Of a DNA stretch of 64,000 bases, positions 13,800-28,013 are shown piece after piece. Position numbers and translations under genes: made by a program. This stretch comes from an uncultured Gemmatimonadales bacterium (lineage in GTDB: Bacteria; Gemmatimonadota; Gemmatimonadetes; Gemmatimonadales; GWC2-71-9): assembly GCA_963828735.1 (NCBI GenBank), contig CAWHFW010000005.1, positions 1,472,001 to 1,536,000 on the forward strand, read 5' to 3'. A model generated the notes under the pieces. That model saw only the letters and a list, made by a program, of their open reading frames with translations, was not told the DNA's origin and made no database searches. Each line of letters begins with the position of its first letter. The stretch's first letter is position 1.

Positions 13800-14015
13800 G
13801 TGCCGGGCATCTTCGTCAGCATGTGCGTCTGTCGCCATATGCCATTCGAGCGGCTGCTGCCGCTCGCACGCGCCGGTGGTTGGGGACTCGACGAGATCGC
13901 CCGCGCGACCGGGTGCGGCGCGGGCTGCGGCCTTTGCCGCCCCTACCTGCGGCGGATGCTGGCCACCGGCGAGACCGAATTCCACGAGCTGCTGGTCGAG
14001 GATCACGACGCGTGA
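13800..14015 (+). CDS. BFD-like [2Fe-2S]-binding protein
   Basis: CVC...GCGAGCGLC pattern in a 71-aa ORF; GTG start 2 nt after the SDR stop. Confidence 0.75.
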   Translation: MPGIFVSMCVCRHMPFERLLPLARAGGWGLDEIARATGCGAGCGLCRPYLRRMLATGETEFHELLVEDHDA

Positions 14016-14160
14016 GCCGGCCGATTCGAATCCGGCGCCTCCTCGGCCACGGCCGTCTTCCAGTTCAGCTCCCTACCGAACGCCCGGTCCGCCACGTTTC
14101 GGTCGGCGACGCGGAATGAAGCCCTTGAACACTCAGGGCCGCAGGTCCACCTTTCAGCCG

Positions 14161-14499
14161 ATGCCATTCGGCCGCCTTCTCCGGCTGTTCCTCCTGGCCC
14201 TCCCGCTCACGCTGGGCATGGCCAGAGGCGCGGAGCATTCCCGCCCCGCGGCGGCCGATCCGGTCTCCACCATCAGCGCTCCGCGGGAATCGCTCCCGCC
14301 GCCGGTCCACGACGAGGCGACCTGCGCCTTCTGCCAGGCCGCCATTTTCCCGCCCTGCGCCCCACAGCCGACGACCGTCTCGCTCGACGCGCTCGGCGTC
14401 GTTCGCCAGGAGTGCGCCGCGGCCGACGAGGCCACGCCGCACTTCACTACCCACCGCCTCACCACCACCCGGGCACCACCTACGCTCCGTTCGGCCTGA
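14161..14499 (+). CDS. RAPP-motif leader peptide 1 (DUF2946/CruR/CutF-like upstream ORF)
   Basis: Signal-peptide-like N-terminus (RLLRLFLLALPLTLGMARG), HDEATCAFC (CxxC) and C-terminal TRAPP; ends 48 nt upstream of tolC. Confidence 0.75.
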   Translation: MPFGRLLRLFLLALPLTLGMARGAEHSRPAAADPVSTISAPRESLPPPVHDEATCAFCQAAIFPPCAPQPTTVSLDALGVVRQECAAADEATPHFTTHRLTTTRAPPTLRSA

Positions 14500-14545
14500 C
14501 GCGCGCGCCCATTCCGGGCGCGCCACTCAACCGTACTCGGAGCGT
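14482..14545 (+). promoter_or_regulatory. Anti-SD/SD sequestering structure in front of tolC
   Basis: ACGCTCCG (14482-14489) is the exact reverse complement of CGGAGCGT (14538-14545), which contains the tolC SD; the two enclose the hairpin GCGCGCCC-ATTCC-GGGCGCGC (14503-14523). Confidence 0.65.
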
Positions 14546-14547
14546 CC

Positions 14548-15960
14548 ATGTCCGTCCGAATCCGGACGGTCGCCCTCCTTGCCTTCTGGCTGGGGGGGGC
14601 GACCGTCGCCAGAGCCCAGGTCCCCCGGGGTGCCACCGCTGATTCGGTGGCGCGAGGCCTGGGCCCGGCCGATTCGCTGGAGCTCACACTCAGGTCCGAC
14701 TGCGTGGGAGCGAACGCGGACACCACGACACCGGGATCCGCCGAGGTGCCCCGCGACCTGCTGTGCCTGACCCGCCAGCAAGCGATCGCTCAAGCGTTGG
14801 CCAAGAACCCCCAGCTCCAGGTGGCGGCTGAGCAGGTCGCCCAGGCGCACGCGCGAAAGGTCCAGGCCACTGCGATGCCTGACCCCCAGTTCGCCGCCGC
14901 CTTCGACCAATCGCAGGGCCTGTTCGGCGCCGGGGGCGCCAGCGAGCGGAGCCTCGCTGCGACCGTCACGATCCCGTTCATCGACAAGTTCCGACTGCAG
15001 GGCCGGGTCGGGACGGCGGACGTCCGCTCCGCCGACTTCTCCGCCGCACTGGTCCGGCAACAGCTCACCTCGGCGACTTCACAAACGTACGACTCGCTCC
15101 TCGCCTCGCTCCGCCGCGAGCGGGATCTGCGGGAGGCCAAGGCGCTGGCCCAGGACTTCGTGCGACGAGCGGAGGCGCGGTATAACGCCGGGACGACGCC
15201 GAAGCTCGACCTCGTGCGGGCGCAGGTGGAGCTGGCGCGGACCGAGAACGATCTCATCGGAAACGAGCGCGACGTGGCCAACGCGCGCGCGGCCCTCAAC
15301 CGGCTCGTCGGCCGTCCGCTCGGTGCCCCGATCGCCGCCGCCGATTCCCTGGGCGTGCCGCCGGCGCCGCCGGACCTCGACCGGCTCGTGGCCGCCGCCA
15401 TGGCCGCGCGGCCCGAGCTCGGGAGCCTGAAGAGTCAGGAGGCGGGCGCGCGCGCGGCCTCCGGACTGGCGCGGGAGTACTGGCTTCCCGATCTCACCGT
15501 CGGCATCAGCCATGATTACGCCGATCCCGGGCCAGGCTACATCTTCAGCGGCGTGTCGCTGCCGATCCCGCTCTTCTTCTGGAATCACTCGCGCGGAGAG
15601 ATCGCCGAGGCGCACCACCACGAGCTCGAGTTGGCAGCGGCGTACCAGGACCTCGAGCAGCAGGTGGGTCAGGACCTCCGCGCGGCCTATGCGGCCGCGG
15701 CCGCCGCCCTCCGCCAGGCCGTCTACATCCGCGACCAGATCCTCCCGCTCGCTCGCCAGGCCTACCACATCGCCTCCGTCAGCTATGGCCTCGGGGGCTC
15801 TTCGGCCCTGGACCTGCTGGACGCCCGGCGCAACCTGCTCGACGCGGAAAGCCAGTACACCGACGCGCTGGCGGCCGCCAACGATACCCGCGCGGAGCTC
15901 GAGCGCGCGGCCGCCACTCCGCTGGATTCGCTCGAGACCGGAGGCACCAATGACCGATAA
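14548..15960 (+). CDS. TolC/CzcC family outer-membrane efflux protein
   Basis: Signal peptide; ALAKNPQL, RYNAG...LDLVRAQV and Y.LG..S.LDLLDAR repeats. Confidence 0.9.
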   Translation: MSVRIRTVALLAFWLGGATVARAQVPRGATADSVARGLGPADSLELTLRSDCVGANADTTTPGSAEVPRDLLCLTRQQAIAQALAKNPQLQVAAEQVAQAHARKVQATAMPDPQFAAAFDQSQGLFGAGGASERSLAATVTIPFIDKFRLQGRVGTADVRSADFSAALVRQQLTSATSQTYDSLLASLRRERDLREAKALAQDFVRRAEARYNAGTTPKLDLVRAQVELARTENDLIGNERDVANARAALNRLVGRPLGAPIAAADSLGVPPAPPDLDRLVAAAMAARPELGSLKSQEAGARAASGLAREYWLPDLTVGISHDYADPGPGYIFSGVSLPIPLFFWNHSRGEIAEAHHHELELAAAYQDLEQQVGQDLRAAYAAAAAALRQAVYIRDQILPLARQAYHIASVSYGLGGSSALDLLDARRNLLDAESQYTDALAAANDTRAELERAAATPLDSLETGGTNDR

Positions 15961-17104
15961 GCCCGCGCTCGGCTCGGCCCTCATGCTGGTCGCGGCCACC
16001 GTCGCCGCGTGCAGCGGCGGCTCGCGCCGGAGCGATCCCGGCGACAGCACCACAACCTCAGCGGGCCAGGTCGGCACGGTCGAGCTCGACACCGCGCAAC
16101 GCTCGCGGATTCACGTAGAGAAGGTCGCGCCAGAGACCTACAGGGCCAGCGTCACCACCACCGGCACGGTGGCCTTCAACGGCGACCGATCCACCCAGGT
16201 GATCGCGCCCATCTCGGGCCCGGTCTCGCGGATCCTGGTGTCGCCTGGGGCCCGAGTGGAGCGCGGGCAGCCGCTCGCGATCGTGTCGTCGCCGGACTTC
16301 GCCGAGGCGGTCGCCTCCTACCGCAAGGCCGAGGGCGCGTGGCGGAACGCGTCGCGCATCGCCAGCCTGGACGAGCAGTTGTTCGCCAACGACGCGCTGG
16401 CCCGGAGCGACCTCGACCAGGCCCGGACCGACCTGGCCGCGGCCACGGCGGATCGGGAGGCGGCGCTGTCGCAGCTCCGATCGCTGGGTCTCGACGAGAC
16501 GGCAATCGACGCCATTCGCGATGGCAAGTCGGTCTCGGCGGGCGAGAGTGCCGTCCGCGCGCCGATCGCCGGCACGGTGGTCGAAAAGCTCGTTACGCCC
16601 GGCCAGCTCCTGCAGGCGGGCGCCACGCCGTGCTTCACCATCGCCGATCTCTCCACGGTGTGGGTCATGGCCAACGTGTTCGAGAGCGACCTCGGCGCGG
16701 TCCGGCGCGGAGAGGCGGCCCTGATCACGACCAACGCGGCTCCCGACACCCTGCCCGGCCAGGTGGACTACGTCGCCGATCTGGTGGATCCGTCCACCAA
16801 GGCCACCGCCGTCCGCGTACTCGTACCGAACAAGGCGCGGCTGCTGCGGCGGGACATGCTCGTGCGGGTGACGATCCGGGGCCTCACGCCGAGCACCGGC
16901 CTCCTGGTACCGGTCGCGGCGGTGCTGCGGGACGACGAGAATCTCCCATACGTCTATGTGGCGTCGCCGGGCGGCTTCGCACGCCGGCGGGTGGACCTGG
17001 GCGGTCGGGTCGGTGACCGGTACGAGATCGCATCGGGGCTCGAGCCCGGCGAATCGGTAGTGACCGACGGGGCGCTCTTTCTCGAAGGCGCGTCCACCCA
17101 GTGA
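15950..17104 (+). CDS. RND periplasmic adaptor (CzcB-like MFP), lipoprotein
   Basis: Lipobox VAAC; APISG.V and VRAPIAGTV hybrid motifs; IADLSTVWV.ANV.E; overlaps the tolC stop. Confidence 0.9.
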   Translation: MTDKPALGSALMLVAATVAACSGGSRRSDPGDSTTTSAGQVGTVELDTAQRSRIHVEKVAPETYRASVTTTGTVAFNGDRSTQVIAPISGPVSRILVSPGARVERGQPLAIVSSPDFAEAVASYRKAEGAWRNASRIASLDEQLFANDALARSDLDQARTDLAAATADREAALSQLRSLGLDETAIDAIRDGKSVSAGESAVRAPIAGTVVEKLVTPGQLLQAGATPCFTIADLSTVWVMANVFESDLGAVRRGEAALITTNAAPDTLPGQVDYVADLVDPSTKATAVRVLVPNKARLLRRDMLVRVTIRGLTPSTGLLVPVAAVLRDDENLPYVYVASPGGFARRRVDLGGRVGDRYEIASGLEPGESVVTDGALFLEGASTQ

Positions 17105-20100
17105 GCGACATGCCGGACGTGCCGAGCCCGTCCACCACTACGCGCCGATCCTTCATCCACCGTATCGTCGCGCTTGCGCTCGCCCAGCCGGCGGTGGTGA
17201 TCGCCGGCGCCGCCGCCGCAGCGGCGGCCGGCGTGTGGGCGTTCTCACAGCTTCCGATCGACGCCTATCCAGACCTGTCGTCGCCGACGGTCGAGATCAC
17301 GACACAGTGGCCGGGCCACGCCGCCGAGGAAGTGGAGCGGCTCCTCACCGTGCCGATCGAGACCGAGATGAACGGGCTGCCGGGCCTGGACGTTGTCCGC
17401 TCGATCTCGTTGTACGGGCTGTCCGACGTCCGGCTTGTGTTCAAAGACGGCACCGACAACTACTTCGCGCGCGAGCGGGTGTTCGAGAAGCTGCGCGACG
17501 TGGACGTTCCCGACGGCGTTTCGCCCGACGTGGCCCCGCTGTTCTCCCCCTCCGGCCTGGTGTACCGCTACGTCCTGCAGAGCCCCGACCGCTCCCCCAT
17601 GGAGCTCAAGACGATCCAGGACTGGGTGCTGTCGAAGGCCTACAAGGCCGTGCCCGGCGTCGCCGACCTGTCGGGGTTCGGGGGCCAGACGATGCAGTAC
17701 CAGGTCGTCCTCGATCCGACCCGGCTCGCCGGCGCGGGCCTCTCGGTTCCTGCGGTCGCCGAAGCGCTGGGCTCGAACAACGGCAACGCGGGTGGAGGAT
17801 TCTACTCCGAGGGTGGGCAGTTCTATTACGTGCGCGGCCTGGGGCGCCTCCAGGTGCCCGAAGACATCGGCAAGGTCGTCCTCGCCGTCAAGAATGGCAC
17901 GCCGATTCTCGTGCACGACGTCGGCCAGGTCGTCATCGGGTACGCACCTCGCCTCGGACAGTTCGGGTTCAACGACCAGCCAGACGCCGTCGAAGGCGTC
18001 GTGCTGATGCGCACCGGGGAGCAGGCGCAGACCGTGCTCAAGGGCGTCGAGGCCGAGACCGCGAGGCTCAACTCGACCGTGCTGCCCAAGGACGTGCGGG
18101 TCGTGCCGTTCTACGACCGGAGCGACTTGATCCGGCTGACCACGCGGACGGTCGAGGGAAACCTGCTCCGCGGGATCGTCCTGGTGATCGCCGTCCTCAT
18201 TTTCTTCCTGTTCGACTTCCGGGCGGGACTCATCGTCGCCGTGACGATTCCGCTGGCCCTGCTGATCGCGTTCATCTGCCTCGACCTGCGCGGTGTGCCT
18301 GCCAACCTGCTCTCCATCGGCGCCATCGATTTCGGGATCCTCGTGCATGGCGCCGTCGTGATGGTCGAGAACATCTACCGAAGTCTGGCTCGGCGATACG
18401 GAACCGTGTACTCCATCCGCGAGGTCATCGCGGAGGCGTCCGCGGAGGTGGACCGGCCGGTGGTCTACGCCATCGCGATCATCGTCGCGGGATTCCTTCC
18501 GATCTATACGCTCTCCGGGCCCGCGGGCCGGCTGTTTCGGCCCATGGCGGACACGACCATCTTCGCGCTCGCCGGCGCCCTGGCGATGACGCTGACGCTC
18601 GTCCCGGTGCTCTGCGCCGTGTTCCTCCGGGGTGGCGTGCACGAGCGGCGAAACGTCGTGTACGAAGCCGTGCTTTCGGCGTACGCTCGTGCCCTGGACC
18701 GCTGTCTCGCCTATCCTCGCGCCACCGTCCTCGCCTCGGTCGGGCTGTTCGCCGCGGCACTGCTGCTGACCAGCGGCATCGGTGCCGAGTTCATGCCCCA
18801 TCTCGACGAGGGCGCGCTCTGGGTCCGGGCGACCATGCCCGCGACCATCTCGCTCGAGGAGTCGTCCAAACTCGTGCCGCAGTTCCGCCGCATCCTCAAG
18901 AGCTTTCCCGAGGTCACGGTGGTCGCGTCCGAGCACGGGCGGCCGGACGACGGCACCAATCCCACCGGATTCTTCAATGCGGAGTTCTACGTCGGCCTCA
19001 AGCCCTACGGCGATTGGCACGGCCGCTTTCACAGCAAGCCCGAGCTCATCGACGCCATGAACCAGAAGCTCTCCGTCTTTCCCGGCGTGAGCTTCAACTA
19101 CACCCAGCCCGCGGAGGATGCCGTCGACGAGGCCGAGACCGGGCTCAAGAGCGCGTTGGCGGTGAAGGTATTCGGTCCGGACCTCCAGGTGCTGGAGGCC
19201 AAGGGGCGGGCGATCGAACGGGTGCTGCACCGGGTGCCCGGCATGAGCCGGATTACCGTGGTGGAAGAGCTGGGTCAGCCCAGTCTCACACTCACCATCG
19301 ATCGCGACCGGATCGCGCGCTATGGCATCAACGTGGCCGACGTGAACGCCCTGATCGAGGCGGCAGTCGGCGGCGTCGCCGCGACCTCGGTGGTGCAGGG
19401 CGAGAAGTCGTTCGACCTGGTGGTCCGGCTGGAGCCCCGGTTCCGGGAGACGCCGGAGCAGATCGGCGAGATCCTCGTCGCGGCCCCGGACGGGCAACAG
19501 ATTCCGCTCCGGGAGCTCGCGACCATCGGTGTAAACAGCGGCGCGTCGTTCATCTACCGCGAGGACAACTCGCGGTATATCGGCGTGCAGTTCGCCGTGG
19601 AGGGACGGGATCTCGCGGGCACCGTGCAGGAAGCGCAGCGCGAGGTCCGGGCGGCTGTGCCCCTGCCGCCGGGGTATCAGGTAGTCTGGGGTGGGGAGTA
19701 CGAGGAGTACACCGCGTCGCGGACCCAGCTCGCGGTGGTGCTGCCGCTCACGGTCGCGCTCATCTTCGTGCTGCTGTTCGCCCTCTACCGGAACTTCAGC
19801 TTTCCACTGATCACGGTGATCGGGGTGGTGCTTTCCGCTCCCGTCGGCGGATTCCTCGCCCTCGCCCTCACCGGGACTCCGTTCTCGGTGTCGTCCGGCA
19901 TCGGCTTCCTGGCGCTGTTCGGAGTGTCGGTGCAAACCGCGGTGGTGTACATCTCCCACGCCAACGAGCTTCGCCAAGGCGGTGTGGCCATCGCCACGGC
20001 CGTGCATGAAGCCGCGCTGAACCGGTTGCGGCCCATCATGATGACGGCGCTGGTCGCCGCTTTGGGACTGCTCCCGGCGGCCGTGTCCACCGGCGTCGGG

Positions 20101-20229
20101 TCCGACTCGCAGCGCCCGTTCGCGATGGTCATCGTAGGCGGGCTGTTCTCACGACTCCTCATCAGCGTGTTCCTGATGCCCGTGCTCTATGCGTACGTCG
20201 CCAGGGAGAATGACCGGCTGGAGGTGTGA
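17101..20229 (+). CDS. Heavy-metal efflux RND permease (CzcA/CusA family)
   Basis: LPIDAYPDL, NLLSIGAIDFG, F.PMA.T, P.LDEG, RLRPIMMTA and QRPFA.VIVGGL; 1042 aa. Confidence 0.95.
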   Translation: MSDMPDVPSPSTTTRRSFIHRIVALALAQPAVVIAGAAAAAAAGVWAFSQLPIDAYPDLSSPTVEITTQWPGHAAEEVERLLTVPIETEMNGLPGLDVVRSISLYGLSDVRLVFKDGTDNYFARERVFEKLRDVDVPDGVSPDVAPLFSPSGLVYRYVLQSPDRSPMELKTIQDWVLSKAYKAVPGVADLSGFGGQTMQYQVVLDPTRLAGAGLSVPAVAEALGSNNGNAGGGFYSEGGQFYYVRGLGRLQVPEDIGKVVLAVKNGTPILVHDVGQVVIGYAPRLGQFGFNDQPDAVEGVVLMRTGEQAQTVLKGVEAETARLNSTVLPKDVRVVPFYDRSDLIRLTTRTVEGNLLRGIVLVIAVLIFFLFDFRAGLIVAVTIPLALLIAFICLDLRGVPANLLSIGAIDFGILVHGAVVMVENIYRSLARRYGTVYSIREVIAEASAEVDRPVVYAIAIIVAGFLPIYTLSGPAGRLFRPMADTTIFALAGALAMTLTLVPVLCAVFLRGGVHERRNVVYEAVLSAYARALDRCLAYPRATVLASVGLFAAALLLTSGIGAEFMPHLDEGALWVRATMPATISLEESSKLVPQFRRILKSFPEVTVVASEHGRPDDGTNPTGFFNAEFYVGLKPYGDWHGRFHSKPELIDAMNQKLSVFPGVSFNYTQPAEDAVDEAETGLKSALAVKVFGPDLQVLEAKGRAIERVLHRVPGMSRITVVEELGQPSLTLTIDRDRIARYGINVADVNALIEAAVGGVAATSVVQGEKSFDLVVRLEPRFRETPEQIGEILVAAPDGQQIPLRELATIGVNSGASFIYREDNSRYIGVQFAVEGRDLAGTVQEAQREVRAAVPLPPGYQVVWGGEYEEYTASRTQLAVVLPLTVALIFVLLFALYRNFSFPLITVIGVVLSAPVGGFLALALTGTPFSVSSGIGFLALFGVSVQTAVVYISHANELRQGGVAIATAVHEAALNRLRPIMMTALVAALGLLPAAVSTGVGSDSQRPFAMVIVGGLFSRLLISVFLMPVLYAYVARENDRLEV

Positions 20230-20296
20230 GCCCTGTGCTCTTCGCCTGGAATTACCTAGACCGTCACTACGCGCGCGTGGCTGGAGCCGTTTGACC

Positions 20297-20626
20297 GTGC
20301 TCGCCCGGGTCCGCGCCTGGCTCCTTCTCGCGCTCTTCCTGGGCGCGGGCACCAGCCTGCCGAGCGCGGACGCGCTGCTGCACCACCAGCATCCCGAGCC
20401 GTTCCGGGTGCACTACGACCCGGCCGGCGGGTGCGCCGAGCACGCGGATCACTGCACGCTGGGCCGCACGCCGCCGGGCTCGAGGGCGGTGGCGCCGGTC
20501 ATGCTCGTGGTCCGTGTCGGACCGAACAAGCCGTCGCATGCCATCCGCACCCCGTCCGCGCAACTGTTCGATGCGCGGACCTCCTTCCTCCCTCCGTCCC
20601 GAGCTCCTCCGGCGCCGCCGATCTGA
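20297..20626 (+). CDS. RAPP-motif leader peptide 2 (DUF2946-like upstream ORF)
   Basis: GGAG RBS (alternative TTG start at 20291); hydrophobic N-terminus RVRAWLLLALFLGAG; HHQH, CAEHADHC and C-terminal PPSRAPPAPPI; lies upstream of a TonB-dependent receptor. Confidence 0.75.
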   Translation: MLARVRAWLLLALFLGAGTSLPSADALLHHQHPEPFRVHYDPAGGCAEHADHCTLGRTPPGSRAVAPVMLVVRVGPNKPSHAIRTPSAQLFDARTSFLPPSRAPPAPPI

Positions 20627-20704
20627 CGGGACCTCCCGTCCGAACATCGCGGCTCCCCGGGCGCACCCATGCGCCGGGGTCATGCTCCCTGAACCGGAGG
20701 CTCG
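20600..20704 (+). promoter_or_regulatory. Anti-SD/SD sequestering structure in front of the TonB-dependent receptor
   Basis: CGAG(CT)CCTCCGG (20600-20612, the RAPP codons) pairs with CCGGAGGCTCG (20694-20704, containing the SD); internal hairpins at 20625-20640 and 20655-20679. Confidence 0.65.
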
Positions 20705-20705
20705 A

Positions 20706-22979
20706 ATGGTTACGCTGCTTCTGGCGGCGGCGCTTGCCGTCGCCGCGGGTCCGTCGCGGGCGGCGGCGCCCGCGCCTGCCGCCGTGCTCACCGGCACCGT
20801 CACCGACAGCGCCGGCGCCCCACTGGCCGACGTCCGAGTGCACGTGCCCGAGCTTGGGCGCGGAACGACCACCGACGCCGAGGGCAGGTTCACGCTGCCC
20901 CAAGTGCCGTCGGGCACCTACGAGGTTGCCTTCTCCCGCATCGGCTATGCTCCGCTCGTCCACCGAGTCACCGTCGGCGTTCAGCCCGTGATCCTCGCGG
21001 TGTCGATGCACTCCTCGGCCGTCGAGCTGCCGGAGGTGCAGGTGACGGCCACCCCGAATGCCACCACCGCGCTCACATCTCCCCAGCCGATCAGCATCCT
21101 CGATCATGACAACCTGCGGGTCGCGCAGGCGCCGTCGCTCGGCGAGACGATCAGCGGACTCGCCGGCGTCCACAGCATCAACCAAGGCCCGGCGATCGGG
21201 AAACCGGTCATCCGGGGCCTCAGCTCGAGCCGCGTCCTCGTGCTCGACAACGGCCAGCGCATCGAGACGCAGGGCTGGGGTGACGAGCACTCGCCCAACA
21301 TCGAGACGGCCGACGCCGAGCGGATCGAGGTCATCCGGGGGCCGGCGAGCGTGCTGTACGGCTCAGACGCGCTCGGTGGCGTGGTCAACGTGGTGAAACG
21401 CGACCTGCCGGACGCGATCGGGCGAGACCCGCTCTTCCGCGGCGCGCTTTCGGTCGCGTACAGCACGAACAACCAGCAACCCGAGGGGACCGCGCAGGTC
21501 GATGGGGCCACGGGCGGGCTCGGCTTCCGGGCGTCGGTCACCGGCAGGATGAGCGACGATTTCACCACCCCGGTAGGCGACGTGTTCAACACCGGCAACA
21601 GCGCGGTGGCCGGGAACGGCTCGGTGGGCTACCGCGGGAGCTGGGGGTCGGTGCGTGGTGACTTCGTGTACCGCGACGAGAAGCCGGAGCTTCACGACGA
21701 CGCAACAGCGACGCCATTCCAGCGCATCGGCGACACTCGCGCCGGAATCAGCGCCAACCTCCCGATCGGCCAGTCTCGCCTCGAGGTGATCACGGGGTTC
21801 GAGCGAAACCGCCGGCGGGAGTTCGAGGAGGCCGGCTCCGAGGAGGTGGCGTCTGGCCTGCTCGCCAGCAGCTTCAAGGCCGACGCCCGGTTCCATCACG
21901 AGCCCCTCGGCCGGCTCACCGGCCTCGTGGGCCTGCAGGCCTTCTTCGACGACTTCACCGTGTCCGGGGTGGACCAGCACCTGATCCCGAGCAATCAGGC
22001 ACGGAACGTCGGAGTTTACGCCTTCGAGCAGCTCGACATCGACCGCTGGACGCTCTCGTTCGGAGCTCGCTACGACTACCGCCGGCTGGACGTTACCGCG
22101 GACCCGCCACCGCCGATCGGCACGGGAACGCCCGCGCAGGCCCGCACGTACAGCTCAGTGGTCGGCAATTTCGGCGCGCTATTTCACGTGAGCGAGCCCG
22201 TCGCGCTGGTGGTCAACGTCGGACGCGGCTTTCGGGCACCGCAGCCGATCGAGCTGTTCGCCAACGGTGTGCACGAAGGGACGATCCAGTACAGCGTCGG
22301 GAACCCGGAGCTCGAGAACGAGACGTCGATCAACACCGACTTCGCTGTCCGGGTCCAGAGCGAGAGGGTGAGCGCCGAGCTCGGTGCGTTCGGTAACTTC
22401 ATCAACAACTACATCTACTTCCGGCCGACCGGGACGTATGACTCACCCTCGGGCGGGTTGGAAGATCCGTGCTCGAATCCCGACACGTTCTCCTGCTTCC
22501 AGAAGTTCCAGGCGGTTCAGGGCGACGCCCGCCTCGCCGGCTTCGAGTTCTCGGCCGAGTACCACCCGACGCCGTACCTGCACCTAAGCGGTACGGCGGA
22601 CTACACCCGCGGCCAGAACCGCTCCGTCGACCAGCCGCTCCCGCTGGTGCCGCCGTTCCGCGCGACCTACGGCGCGCGGTTCGAGGGCAAGGGCAACCGC
22701 ACCTTCCTGAATCCCTATGTGTCGGTGAGTGGCGAGACCAACGCGCAGCAGACGAAGCTCGATCCCGACGACTTCGCGCCTCCCGGATACACGCTGGCCA
22801 ACGCTGGCGCGGGAGTCGGACTGACCGCGGGCGCTCGGGTAGTCAATATCGACGTGACTCTCCGGAATGTATTCGACAAGGAGTACCAGACCTTCCTGAG
22901 CCGCTACAAGTTCGCGACGGATCCCATCGTCCTGGATCCGGGCCGTAACCTGACGATGCGCATCAGCACGGATTTCTGA
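20706..22979 (+). CDS. TonB-dependent receptor with N-terminal carboxypeptidase-regulatory-like domain (probable metal uptake)
   Basis: GGAGG RBS; signal peptide; plug motifs KPVIRG and ERIEVIRGPASVLYGSDALGGVVN; QGWGDEH and NGVHEG; ends in PGRN...F. Confidence 0.93.
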   Translation: MVTLLLAAALAVAAGPSRAAAPAPAAVLTGTVTDSAGAPLADVRVHVPELGRGTTTDAEGRFTLPQVPSGTYEVAFSRIGYAPLVHRVTVGVQPVILAVSMHSSAVELPEVQVTATPNATTALTSPQPISILDHDNLRVAQAPSLGETISGLAGVHSINQGPAIGKPVIRGLSSSRVLVLDNGQRIETQGWGDEHSPNIETADAERIEVIRGPASVLYGSDALGGVVNVVKRDLPDAIGRDPLFRGALSVAYSTNNQQPEGTAQVDGATGGLGFRASVTGRMSDDFTTPVGDVFNTGNSAVAGNGSVGYRGSWGSVRGDFVYRDEKPELHDDATATPFQRIGDTRAGISANLPIGQSRLEVITGFERNRRREFEEAGSEEVASGLLASSFKADARFHHEPLGRLTGLVGLQAFFDDFTVSGVDQHLIPSNQARNVGVYAFEQLDIDRWTLSFGARYDYRRLDVTADPPPPIGTGTPAQARTYSSVVGNFGALFHVSEPVALVVNVGRGFRAPQPIELFANGVHEGTIQYSVGNPELENETSINTDFAVRVQSERVSAELGAFGNFINNYIYFRPTGTYDSPSGGLEDPCSNPDTFSCFQKFQAVQGDARLAGFEFSAEYHPTPYLHLSGTADYTRGQNRSVDQPLPLVPPFRATYGARFEGKGNRTFLNPYVSVSGETNAQQTKLDPDDFAPPGYTLANAGAGVGLTAGARVVNIDVTLRNVFDKEYQTFLSRYKFATDPIVLDPGRNLTMRISTDF

Positions 22980-24821: not shown

Positions 24822-25031
24822 ATGCGACATCTCACCCTCCATATCGAAGGCATGAGCTGCGGCCATTGCCTCAACGCGGTCAATCGAGCGCTCGCAGGGC
24901 TGCCTGGCATCGAGATCGAATCGGTCACCATCGGGCGGGCAAACTTGCGCTACGACGAGCGCACCATGGACTCCGAGCGCATCGAAGCCGCGGTCACCGA
25001 AGCGGGATATCGGGCCACGGGCGTGTCATGA
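24822..25031 (+). CDS. copZ: Copper chaperone (HMA domain)
   Basis: 69 aa; IEGMSCGHC and I..AVTEAGY. Confidence 0.9.
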
Positions 25032-25411
25032 CCACCGCGCAGCTCGCCGTCACGTTGTTGGGCCTCGCGGCCATCGCGTGGGTCAACTGGTACTTCTTCA
25101 TCGCCGGTCGTCGCGCGGTGACGGCAGACGTCGAGCGCGGCGGAGCCCAGCGCGTGCGCATCGAGGTGAAGGGCGGCTACACCCCCGCGGTAATTCGCGT
25201 CCGTGCCGGCTCTCCCGTCCGCCTCGATTTCCACCGCGACGAGACCAATCCCTGTACCGAGGAGGTCGTCCTTCCGGCCTTCGGAATTCGCACGTTTCTC
25301 CCGGCCCATCGAACCACGTCGGTGAGCTTCACGCCCGGCGAGGGGAAGTTCGAGTTCGCGTGCGGCATGGGCATGGTGCGAGGGACTATCGTCGCGGAGA
25401 AGGTCGAGTAG
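25028..25411 (+). CDS. Membrane-anchored cupredoxin-domain protein (CupA-like)
   Basis: ATGA overlap; one N-terminal TM helix ending WYFF; GGYTP..I, CTEEV and FACGMGM. Confidence 0.85.
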
Positions 25412-25413
25412 AC

Positions 25414-27681
25414 ATGTCGGACGCCCTGACCGCTTCGACCGATTCCTGCACCATCCCGGTCACCGGGATGACCTGCGCCGCGTGCAGCAGCCGGGTGCAG
25501 CGGACGCTCGAGCGCACGGACGGAGTTTCGTCGGCCAACGTCAACCTCATGACCGGCGCGGCGACGGTCGCCTACGATCCGTCGGTAACATCGCCCGAGC
25601 GCCTGGTCGACACCATTCGCGGTACCGGGTACGGGGCGCAATTGCCGCTGCCGAACGAGTCGAGCGAGGCGCTCCTGGACGCCCAGGACGCCGCGCGCGC
25701 CGAGGAGGTGCGCGATCTGCGCGGCAAGTTCGCGCTCGGCGCGACGGTCGGCCTCGGCATCATGGCGCTCGCCATGACGCCCACCGGCTCGGGCGATATC
25801 GGCCGCTATGCCGCGCTGGCGCTCACGCTGCCGGTGGTCGGCTGGGCGGGACGGCATTTCTACACGCGCGCGTGGGGCGCCTTCCGGCACCACGGCGCCG
25901 ACATGAACACGCTGATCGCTGTCGGCACCGGAACCGCGTTCGTCTTCAGCGCCGTCGTGACGGTGTTCGACGACTGGTTCGCCGCCCACGGGGTCGAGCC
26001 GCACGTGTACTTCGAGGCGGTGGTGTGGATCATCGCGCTCGTGCTGCTCGGGAACCTGCTCGAGGCCCGGGCGAAGGGTCAGACGTCCGGCGCCATCCGT
26101 CGGCTCATCGGCCTGCGTCCGGCGACGGCACGTGTGCTTCGCGACGGGCGAGAGGAGGACGTGCCGCTCGCGACGCTTCGAGTCGGCGACGAGGTGCTGG
26201 TCCGCCCCGGCGAGACTGTGCCCGCCGACGGCACCATCGTCGACGGCGCGAGCAACCTGGACGAGAGCATGCTCACCGGCGAGCCGATGCCGGTGCCGAA
26301 GCGAGTCGGCGACCGGGTGATCGGAGCCACGCTCAACCGGAACGGAGCGTTCCGGTTCCGCGCCGAGCGGGTGGGGAACGCGACCGTGCTTTCGCGGATC
26401 ATCCGTCTCGTGCAACAGGCGCAGGGCAGCAAGGCGCCGATCCAGCGGCTGGCCGATCGCATCTCGGCGGTGTTCGTCCCCGTGGTGCTGTCGATCGCGA
26501 TCCTGACGTTCGTCGTCTGGTTCGACCTTGGGCCCGCGCCGGCCTACTTGCACGCCCTCGTGTCCGCCGTGACCGTGCTCATCATTGCCTGCCCCTGCGC
26601 CATGGGGCTTGCCGTCCCGACGGCGGTGATGGTCGGAACGGGACGCGGCGCCGAGCTCGGGGTGCTCATCAAGGGCGGCGAGCCGCTCGAGCGGAGCCAT
26701 GCCCTCGACACGATCGTCTTCGACAAGACGGGGACGATCACCGAGGGCCATCCCGCGGTACAGGCGGTCGAGCTCGCCCCCGGTAGTGGCGTCGCGAGCG
26801 AGGCGGACCTCCTCGAGCTCGCCGCGGCGGTCGAGCGGCTCAGCGAACATCCGCTGGCCGACGCGATCGTCGCGGAGGCCGAGCAGAGGGAACGGGCCGC
26901 GGGTCGCGCGACCGACTTCGAGAGCCGCACGGGCAAGGGCGTGCTCGGGACGGTGGCCGGGCGCCGGCTCGCAGTCGGCAACCTCGCCCTCATGAGTGAT
27001 CTCGGCGTCGAGGTGGGTGCTCTCGCGGCTCGAGCCGAGGCATTGGCCACGCTGGGATGGACTCCAGTGTACGTTGCCGTGGATGGCGCACTGGCCGGCA
27101 TCGTCGCGATCGCGGACCCGGTGAAACCCACCAGCGGGAAAGCCATCGCCGAGCTGCGTCGCCTTGGCCTCGAGTCGATCATGCTCACCGGCGACAGCCT
27201 TCGGACGGCGGAGAGCGTCGCGCGGAGCGTCGGAATCACGCGCGTGCTCGCCGAAGTGGCGCCGGACCGGAAGCTGGATGAGATCGGTCGCCTGCAGGCG
27301 GAAGGCCGCGTGGTCGCCATGGTGGGCGACGGCCTCAACGACGCGCCCGCCCTCGCGCGTGCCGACGTGGGCATCGCGATGGGCACCGGCACCGACGTGG
27401 CCATCGAGGCCGGCGCGGTCACGCTGATGCGCGGCGACCCGCTCGGCGTCGTGACCGCCATCCGCCTGGCCCGGACGGTCATGCGAGTCGTCAAGCAGAA
27501 CCTGTTTTGGGCGTTCGTCTACAACGTGATCGGCATTCCGGTGGCGGCGGGCGTTCTGTATCCGGCGTTCGGTCTCCGCCTCACGCCGGCGATGGCCGCG
27601 GCCGCCATGGCCGTGAGCTCGGTGAGCGTCGTGTCCAACAGCCTGCGGCTTCGCCGCTTCACGCCCGGAGGTGCGTCATGA
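25414..27681 (+). CDS. copA: Cu(I)-exporting P1B-1 ATPase
   Basis: GMTCAAC, TGE, CPC, DKTGT, SEHP, GDGLND, YN and MAVSS. Confidence 0.95.
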
Positions 27682-28013
27682 GTCTGCCCGTCGCCCCTTG
27701 CGCTTGTGGCCGTCCCGGGGATGGGACCCATGCCGTGGCGGTGGATCCCGAGATCAAGCGCGCGGTGCTCACTCGGCTCCGGCGCATCGAAGGCCAGGTG
27801 CGCGGCCTGCAGAAGATGGTCGAGGAGGAGCGGTACTGCGCGGACGTACTCATGCAGGTGTCGTCGGCGCAGGAGGCGCTCCGGGGTGTGAGCCGCTCGC
27901 TCCTGCACAATCACCTGAAGCATTGCGCCGCCGAGGCGATCCGCTCGGAGGATCCCGCGCAGTCGGAGGCGATGTACGAGGAGCTGCTGGACCTCGTGTT
28001 CCGGGCGCGGTAA
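27678..28013 (+). CDS. csoR: Copper-sensing repressor, CsoR family
   Basis: [25 protein letters not shown] and H.KHC ligands; ATGA overlap with copA. Confidence 0.92.

Follow-up and report, generated by a model that had tools for sequence, protein, structure and literature searches.

A zinc-uptake-type leader fused to a ZneA-like pump, and a second putative arrest leader before a TonB-dependent receptor, in a Gemmatimonadales genome

Two described systems come closest to the locus considered here. CruR of Bordetella pertussis (PF11162; PMC9426467) carries an export signal, which is dispensable, and a C-terminal RAPP separated from a CxxC by 45 +/- 2 residues; it heads a TonB receptor operon that is on when the ribosome stalls, and it acts through a 162-nt spacer and Rho. 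CutF of Rhodobacter capsulatus (PMC9973294; bioRxiv 2025.02.05.636593) has a CxxxC and a proline-rich motif, has been shown to sense in the periplasm during export, and is copper-ON, with stalling melting a stem-loop over the downstream Shine-Dalgarno sequence (SD); CutF-like genes most often precede OEP/CzcC, CzcA and TonB genes. Work on ApdA/ApdP and a GTDB survey (PMC12992588; PMC10951233) likewise describes small secreted proteins, encoded before TonB and metal genes, that carry RAPP close to the C-terminus. In a 64,000-nt stretch from an uncultured Gemmatimonadales bacterium (contig CAWHFW010000005.1 of assembly GCA_963828735.1, positions 1,472,001 to 1,536,000; hereafter the window, held by genome G000, with other G numbers for genomes and L numbers for loci of relatives), two open reading frames (ORFs) of this kind, leader A and leader B, precede a tolC-membrane-fusion-czcA pump operon and a TonB-dependent receptor gene. 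Comparison with relatives shows leader A to have been taken, together with its promoter, hairpin and a signal peptide, from a barrel-ZnuA-ZnuB cassette of uptake type, and this origin of leader and switch would make the pump starvation-induced. The reading favoured here, with confidence somewhat better than even, is that a ZneA-type pump and an importer are expressed together in shortage, probably of zinc, by way of two stall-ON arrest leaders that act in series and let go when metal binds; that both leaders share one direction of control is likely, and zinc as the main signal is put only slightly above an even chance.

The two leaders are placed as follows:
14161..14499, forward strand: leader A, 112 aa, with a signal or transmembrane (TM) segment, H50, E52, C55, C58 and C66, and RAPP at codons 14470-14481
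20297..20626, forward strand: leader B, 109 aa, with a TM segment, D25, H30, H39, C46, H49 and C53, and RAPP at codons 20600-20611

Leader A has the anatomy of CruR, with a hydrophobic N-terminus as export signal, the motif H-D-E-A-T-C-x-x-C followed by a third Cys, 45 intervening residues, and a RAPP five codons from the end. The CruR spacing rule is inapplicable to leader B, which has the RAPP, with four codons after it, and in place of a CxxC a His/Cys cluster of the form C-x2-H-x3-C; a TTG at 20291 is a possible alternative start, so that its length is 109-111 aa. Like CruR, both stand before metal genes; the differences are that leader B lacks a CxxC, that PF11162 matches neither leader, and that the phylum is another one. 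Both agree with the rules drawn up for CutF-like genes (fewer than 150 aa, PP in the last 15 residues, a signal peptide, here judged by hydrophobic stretch, and a same-strand gene less than 1000 nt downstream; PMC9973294), and both precede the gene types most often found behind such genes, although leader A has CxxC and RAPP where CutF has CxxxC and a proline-rich motif. By this likeness the leaders very probably work as arrest leaders in the manner of CruR and CutF, as the original prediction had proposed, without being members of the Pfam family. That prediction, made from the window's letters and reading frames, had also described two ORFs of about 110 aa with a shared architecture, RAPP four to five codons before the stop and little other similarity, one ahead of tolC-MFP-czcA and one ahead of a TonB-dependent receptor; the lengths and conservation of the ORFs agree, their profiles align over the signal peptide only (hhalign probability 13.9%), and profile matches of the downstream genes bear out the gene order.

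The suggested search of both peptides with the DUF2946 HMM (hidden Markov model) was negative. Neither leader matches PF11162 at E<=1 or at E<=10, no match in the genome exceeds the cut-off, and Pfam and NCBIfam name neither leader. Weak matches occur in 13 of 30 relatives of leader A (best E 0.037) and 6 of 42 relatives of leader B (best E 0.042). A candidate member elsewhere in the genome, L028, gave a single weak match (E 0.26) that falls within other genes, and it was discarded. Elsewhere in the genus, native pumps carry their own leader and N-terminus, and these native leaders form a third type, with a PF11162 match in 20 of 24 (best E 3e-5) and an H-x-E-A-T-C-x-x-C core shared with leader A; their profile meets that of leader A at 97% probability over just 15 columns, and that of leader B at RAPP only (55%). 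Direct homology of leaders A and B is not supported, as their profiles meet only at the signal peptide and the native leaders align to leader B only at RAPP.

Chance occurrences of the motif are common in this GC-rich genome, where RAPP or RGPP lies within 15 codons of the stop in 294 stop-to-stop frames. Requiring a start and a hydrophobic stretch leaves five frames genome-wide as against one to five for each of 11 control motifs, so that this filter by itself does not separate RAPP from the controls and was discarded as evidence; conservation is thus the real test. On that test both leader ORFs are confirmed as real and conserved, with 224 homologous proteins for leader A and 111 for leader B, whose database names point to Gemmatimonadales and in which RAPP/RGPP and the Cys/His residues are nearly invariant. 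C55 and C58 of leader A are invariant in 30/30 aligned rows, and the last Cys of the CxxC lies 46 residues from the Arg of RAPP/RGPP (45 intervening) in 29/29 rows with the motif. For leader B, the distance from Cys53 to the Arg is 49 in 38 of 39 rows, which equals that of the first Cys of the leader A CxxC, the second Cys being missing from leader B.

Surveyed upstream of homologous genes, as had been proposed, an RAPP-type ORF is present at 11/11 tolC loci and 11/16 receptor loci (G000 included in both counts); among the other five receptor loci, one has an ORF ending RPPP, one has no upstream DNA and three lack such an ORF. In a wider scan of resistance-nodulation-division (RND) pumps in the Gemmatimonadota, a leader occurs at all 22 assessable loci of 26, four having no upstream DNA or no tolC. 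The survey was less favourable farther afield: no RAPP leader was found at 30 tolC-bearing loci, mostly of Acidobacteriaceae, among 80 RND loci, and a relaxed search recovered R[AGP]PP ORFs at 13 of 42 re-examined RND loci, so that leader control is not universal for the pump. The leaders that precede this pump at the acidobacterial loci L148, L153, L158, L164, L168, L172, L174, L176 and L178 have RPPP at the end in place of RAPP, and L172 has an RPPP-type leader on each side of the pump.

Both leaders can be modelled as RNA switches in which the end of the leader ORF sequesters the downstream SD:
14482..14545, forward strand: leader A anti-SD helix, 14482-14489 pairing with 14538-14545 over the SD GGAG at 14539-14542 and enclosing a GC-rich hairpin at 14503-14523
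20606..20700, forward strand: leader B anti-SD helix, the Pro-Pro codons pairing with the SD GGAGG at 20696-20700

It had been predicted that the RAPP-coding region pairs with the SD in both cases. For leader A this needs correction, since the anti-SD (z -4.7/-4.8 for the SD pairing) consists of codons 1-3 after RAPP and not of the RAPP codons themselves; for leader B it holds in one set of folds, where the Pro-Pro codons pair with the SD (p 0.98), whereas in other folds the SD pairs with codons just before RAPP (z -2.2/-2.9). Both alternative partners in leader B lie under a ribosome stalled at RAPP. At the 83 loci whose 3' end is of A type, 92% of cells are paired in register versus 27-52% when slid, and across 18 B-receptor loci 90.7% versus 26-49%. 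Covariation of SD and anti-SD, looked for at the earlier suggestion, appears as two-sided changes at the helix edge, and the inner hairpin of leader A covaries (97.6% paired, 16 two-sided changes, a level reached by none of 500 shuffles). In 16/18 B-receptor loci the first Pro codon has T as its last base, CCT making up 5.2% of Pro codons genome-wide, and synonymous recoding lowers pairing from 1.00 to 0.31 for A-tolC and from 0.67 to 0.08 for B-receptor. When the footprint of a ribosome at RAPP is blocked (its size taken from general knowledge), the SD opening energy in G000 falls from 15.1 to 6.5 kcal/mol for leader A and from 13.7 to 5.8 kcal/mol for leader B, and mean SD-ATG opening energies fall from 12.4 to 6.5 kcal/mol for A-tolC (n=13), from 12.5 to 6.4 for A-barrel (n=60) and from 10.8 to 7.7 for B-receptor (n=18), the related loci counted not being independent; a block placed ten codons earlier brings no fall. 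Three rows with mis-assigned starts (L080, L051, L053) were left out of the opening-energy and register counts, and three rows were relabelled as barrel. The prediction that stalling opens the downstream SD is thus upheld in folding models, in which stalling would mean ON for both leaders. These loci differ from CruR and its longer spacer (PMC9426467) in having gaps of 48 and 79 nt and, within them, conserved pairing that sequesters the SD, and the modelled switch resembles that of CutF.

The origin of leader A is read from the junction within the first pump gene:
14125..14153, forward strand: putative sigma-70-type promoter of leader A, with -35 at 14125-14130, a 17-nt spacer and -10 at 14148-14153
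14548..14664, forward strand: chimeric 5' part of tolC, encoding a signal peptide and about 15 residues from the barrel gene of the uptake cassette
14548..15960, forward strand: tolC, outer-membrane factor with a chimeric N-terminus, 470 aa, OEP PF02321

DNA identity to the barrel-linked locus L075 is 78% over 14069-14664, and the match to the native tolC of L118 starts at 14668; the junction at about 14665 is in frame (codon ~39) and is bridged by contigs of the independent sequencing runs X5 and X17. So sharp a change means that the TolC begins with the signal peptide of the barrel. The promoter-like pair ends 6-7 nt 5' of the leader A ATG (7 nt in the window), so close that the mRNA would be leaderless; among relatives the geometry recurs with a -10-like element in 27/30 and a -35-like element in 25/30. 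A consensus promoter scanner returned no site at leader A, the predicted promoter being too weak for it, and a comparison by eye of relatives' upstream DNA revealed no conserved operator near the promoter. The absence of a DNA-binding regulator from the block, noted in the original prediction, stands, though the genome has two Fur-family genes.

Leader A occurs in 48 of 103 genomes of the genus. Thirty of the 48 matching loci were examined, of which 25 lie before a barrel gene and five before tolC; the 68 metagenome loci divide into 44 barrel, 8 tolC, 10 unassigned and 6 incomplete, and the fusion is present in 13 distinct loci. The barrel is a protein of about 450 aa without a Pfam or NCBIfam family (the nearest named Atlas cluster, Porin_O_P, with 22% of members, is a lead only), and it is followed by a ZnuA-family gene (PF01297), an ABC-3 permease gene (PF00950), and then leader B with the receptor; the best NCBIfam matches of the cassette genes are AztC/AztB-like and below cut-off. 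The leaders of the tolC-linked L214 and the barrel-linked L075 are 96% identical over the last 89 residues, and tolC-linked leaders nest within barrel-linked ones (a clade of 13+3 rows, support 100/99). A single clade is marginally rejected for the tolC-linked leaders (p 0.04) and rejected for the A-linked pumps (p 1e-4), so that a one-off capture followed by vertical descent does not fit; the lack of a clean clade on either side would agree with a single fusion that recombination has spread as an alternative allele. The RND trio apparently is such an allele of the barrel cassette locus, passed among relatives. ZnuA was found in 2/13 pump-bearing and 61/90 other genomes of the genus (Fisher p 5e-4, a value overstated by kinship and incomplete genomes), and no ZnuA-family gene was found in five fused genomes, which are 70-97.5% complete; ZIP-family genes are present in G000. 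At L097 (G064:C52), in a genome that carries the pump, leader A and a truncated barrel start run directly into znuB, and barrel and znuA seem to have been deleted.

This near-exclusion of cassette and pump could also be explained if leader A were metal-ON everywhere and the barrel-ZnuA-ZnuB cassette a sequestering module for metal excess that the pump replaces like for like, and no ATPase gene was called within the cassette in the four annotated loci (L102:7773-11126, L103:3984-7205, L104 and L109). Such a scheme is nonetheless very unlikely, as the cassette's binding protein belongs to an uptake family and a TonB-dependent importer follows in series in nine cassette loci, which were chosen for having leaders A and B about 3.7 kb apart.

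How leader B is expressed bears on whether the two leaders act together. No promoter motif was found 5' of leader B in G000, and among relatives a strong -10 precedes leader B in 17 of 18 cases when it is first in its unit and in 0 of 12 (G000 included) when it follows znuB or czcA, which is most simply read as two gates on a single transcript; leaders A and B probably switch in series. Rho is present in the genome, and with a pump region of 5.7 kb left untranslated the receptor would probably not be transcribed, so that opposite control is hard to picture. B-type leaders, moreover, are found at the head of tolC-RND operons as well (L111, L115, L117), and of the barrel cassette (10/30 B loci, one of these ten rows coming from the unpublished genome G047, on which no conclusion rests), so that leader type does not track import versus export. 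The original prediction had held that two leaders with different ligand sets could set export and uptake separately; this idea is not supported, since leader A normally heads an uptake-type cassette, in nearly identical form. A stronger version, in which excess metal would turn the exporter on through leader A as in CutF, and shortage would independently turn the importer on through leader B as in CruR, agrees with the different ligand sets, with the export family of the pump and with the occurrence of both signs among published leaders (PMC9973294), yet the same cassette and promoter evidence makes it quite unlikely.

The tandem is optional, as the B-receptor module is absent after the pump in G007 and G010 and in a contig of run X5. 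A tandem layout is found also in G026, L142 and L172, and the G026 locus L111 has two similar B-type leaders, one heading the RND and the other the receptor. In L058, L061-L068 and L071, which head the barrel cassette, a B-type sensor is joined to an A-type 3' end and anti-SD, and sensor and stall/RNA modules appear to recombine.

The mechanism favoured here would then run as follows. One leaderless transcript would carry two RAPP arrest leaders in series, at each of which, by analogy with CruR, ApdA and ApdP, the ribosome would stall at RAPP; the stalled ribosome would cover the anti-SD and free the SD of tolC or of the receptor. Metal bound to the His/Cys cluster 46-49 residues upstream would release the stall, as in CruR, whereupon the SD would close and the genes that follow may be lost to Rho-dependent polarity; the operon would thus run in metal shortage, most likely of zinc. 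The nascent peptides may, as the original prediction supposed, sense metal in the periplasm while being exported. The pump, in place of a detoxification pump under opposite control, would be a starvation-induced ZneA-type RND working beside an importer, perhaps to clear divalent ions that compete with the wanted metal or to cycle zinc in the periplasm.

The remaining genes of the pump operon are:
15950..17104, forward strand: membrane-fusion protein, 384 aa, PF16576 (HlyD_D23), TIGR01730
17101..20229, forward strand: CzcA-family RND, ZneA-like, with the second TM4 Asp replaced by His at codon 18346-18348

The RND protein scores 893.9 bits against TIGR00914 (cut-off 701.45), which places it in the heavy-metal efflux (HME) RND family of CzcA and CusA; its best match among solved structures is ZneA (E 2e-229; PDB 4k0e), of the ZneCBA/ZniCBA pair of Cupriavidus metallidurans, ahead of CusA (E 1e-165). 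The best match on a Cupriavidus plasmid was without annotation and had a broken frame, and it was left aside. ZneA keeps D399, whereas the pump of G000 has His there, at the second Asp of the TM4 motif DFG-D-EN, with the first Asp and the Glu kept. The motif is described as essential for proton-driven export (PMC11647595), and HME pumps for monovalent and for divalent ions all retain the Asp that is changed here (PMC2891726). The pump is thus a natural Asp/His variant at a residue held essential for RND proton coupling. According to work by Goldberg from 1999, a CzcA mutant at this site reportedly keeps facilitated diffusion. The His is found in 5/13 genomes of the genus and in both metagenome loci checked, and in just one of 80 wider RND loci, of the same lineage. 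Sequencing error is ruled out, as both alleles occur in independent soil runs; a single origin is rejected (approximately unbiased test, p-AU 6e-33), with two to three changes on the tree; and a tie to the capture is ruled out, since G088 has His with a native leader. The same Asp is otherwise replaced in L146, L149 and L168, by Glu in two and Asn in one.

The occurrence of His in four of seven A-linked rows, at a residue so widely kept, could suggest that the capture was an accident that misregulates the pump and that the change switches it off. This is most improbable: the ratio of nonsynonymous to synonymous divergence (dN/dS) is 0.05-0.10 (dS 0.35-0.74) in the His forms just as in the Asp forms, without a stop over 890 codons compared, so that the pump, the His form included, is under purifying selection; the fusion, besides, is present in many distinct loci and the His also occurs apart from it. 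Unlikely too is a further possibility, in which the RND trio has been repurposed for metal acquisition: as an alternative allele governed by the same starvation-ON leader, it would take over the function of the barrel-ZnuA-ZnuB importer, and the Asp-to-His change would make an uncoupled or re-tuned conduit that lets zinc inward or cycle. ZneCBA and ZniCBA rose in EDTA-treated (ethylenediaminetetraacetic acid) Cupriavidus, which its authors considered unexpected, leaving the function open; antisense RNA was invoked for zni, and leader control is not treated in the available text (PMC11647595). The fused locus may offer genetic evidence from another phylum on why 'efflux' pumps of the ZneA/ZniA type rise in metal starvation.

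The second controlled gene is the receptor:
20706..22979, forward strand: TonB-dependent receptor, weakly ZnuD-like, 757 aa, PF00593 and PF07715

Its best match among solved structures is ZnuD (E 3e-29); it scores 135.5 against the ZnuD model NF038289 (cut-off 950), below every NCBIfam cut-off, and far below the copper TonB models. In family f3 (L111:3-6012 and L115:12430-17499), genes for zinc metallopeptidases of the M6 family come after the receptor under leader control. The same series mechanism might respond to copper at leader A, or nickel or cobalt at leader B, rather than zinc; a CxxC at the CruR spacing and the cupredoxin/HMA/P-type ATPase cluster next door speak for such signals, and the zinc-type look of the regulated genes, AztC/ZnuB-like, ZnuD-like, and ZneA-like with a divalent-type first Asp, together with the low scores on copper receptor models, leaves them very improbable.

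Several observations weigh against the favoured reading of a zinc-starvation operon under two stall-ON leaders. Stall, metal and direction of control are deduced from sequence and models. Copper is suggested by the CxxC spacing and by the neighbouring cop-like cluster, Mn/Fe binding proteins such as YfeA and MntC fall within the ZnuA family too, and CutF demonstrates that the same architecture can be metal-ON (PMC9973294). Kinship to ZneA is only at the ~41-44% level, so that the two pumps need not be regulated alike. In the models the SD becomes only modestly more accessible, the mean unpaired probability rising from 0.00-0.04 to 0.08-0.27 in the four main groups; a drop of at least 3 kcal/mol is seen in only 9/18 B-receptor loci, and at one A-tolC locus, L079, the change is in the opposite direction. 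The tolC-linked leaders depart from the barrel-linked ones at three spacer positions, which may reflect ancestry or retuning, and the 68-nt gap before leader B in G000 leaves room for an unrecognised internal promoter.

The layout had been thought undescribed, which is correct in part: leaders before OEP/CzcA and TonB genes are in print (PMC9973294), whereas a literature search found no account of leader capture or tandem leaders, though supplements and figures may list such loci. The available text on CutF (PMC9973294) contains no cassette swap or series wiring, that of the RAPP/RGPP survey (PMC12992588) no Gemmatimonadales leaders, leader capture or RND under an uptake leader, and 'Gemmatimon' is absent from the main text of PMC9426467 and PMC9973294. 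The leader mechanism and both gene contexts are thus known; the literature examined does not mention the captured uptake switch on an RND pump, the near-exclusion of pump and ZnuA, or the His variant. Arrest-peptide switches appear here as portable modules, made up of promoter, sensor, stall, anti-SD and signal peptide, which can be moved from one cargo to another, and the natural swapped pairs let one ask what sets the ON/OFF sign that differs between CruR and CutF.

Around the block, a small BFD-like [2Fe-2S] ORF lies 5' of leader A (13821-14015, forward strand); a GAF-histidine kinase gene stands between the two in G012, G098, G090 and G104 and is missing in G000 (14016-14124). Downstream, at ~25030-28013 on the forward strand, are cupredoxin, heavy-metal P-type ATPase and CsoR-like genes, of which cupredoxin and the heavy-metal-associated domain (HMA) were confirmed on G104 orthologues; the P-type ATPase and CsoR-like labels are tentative ones drawn from motifs, the CsoR-like gene lying ~4.7 kb downstream of the block. 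Elsewhere in the genome, a membrane ORF ending RGPP plus three codons (G000:C2:40511-40023, reverse strand) is a possible third arrest leader, of another type, and could be foreign DNA, the genome being 5% contaminated.

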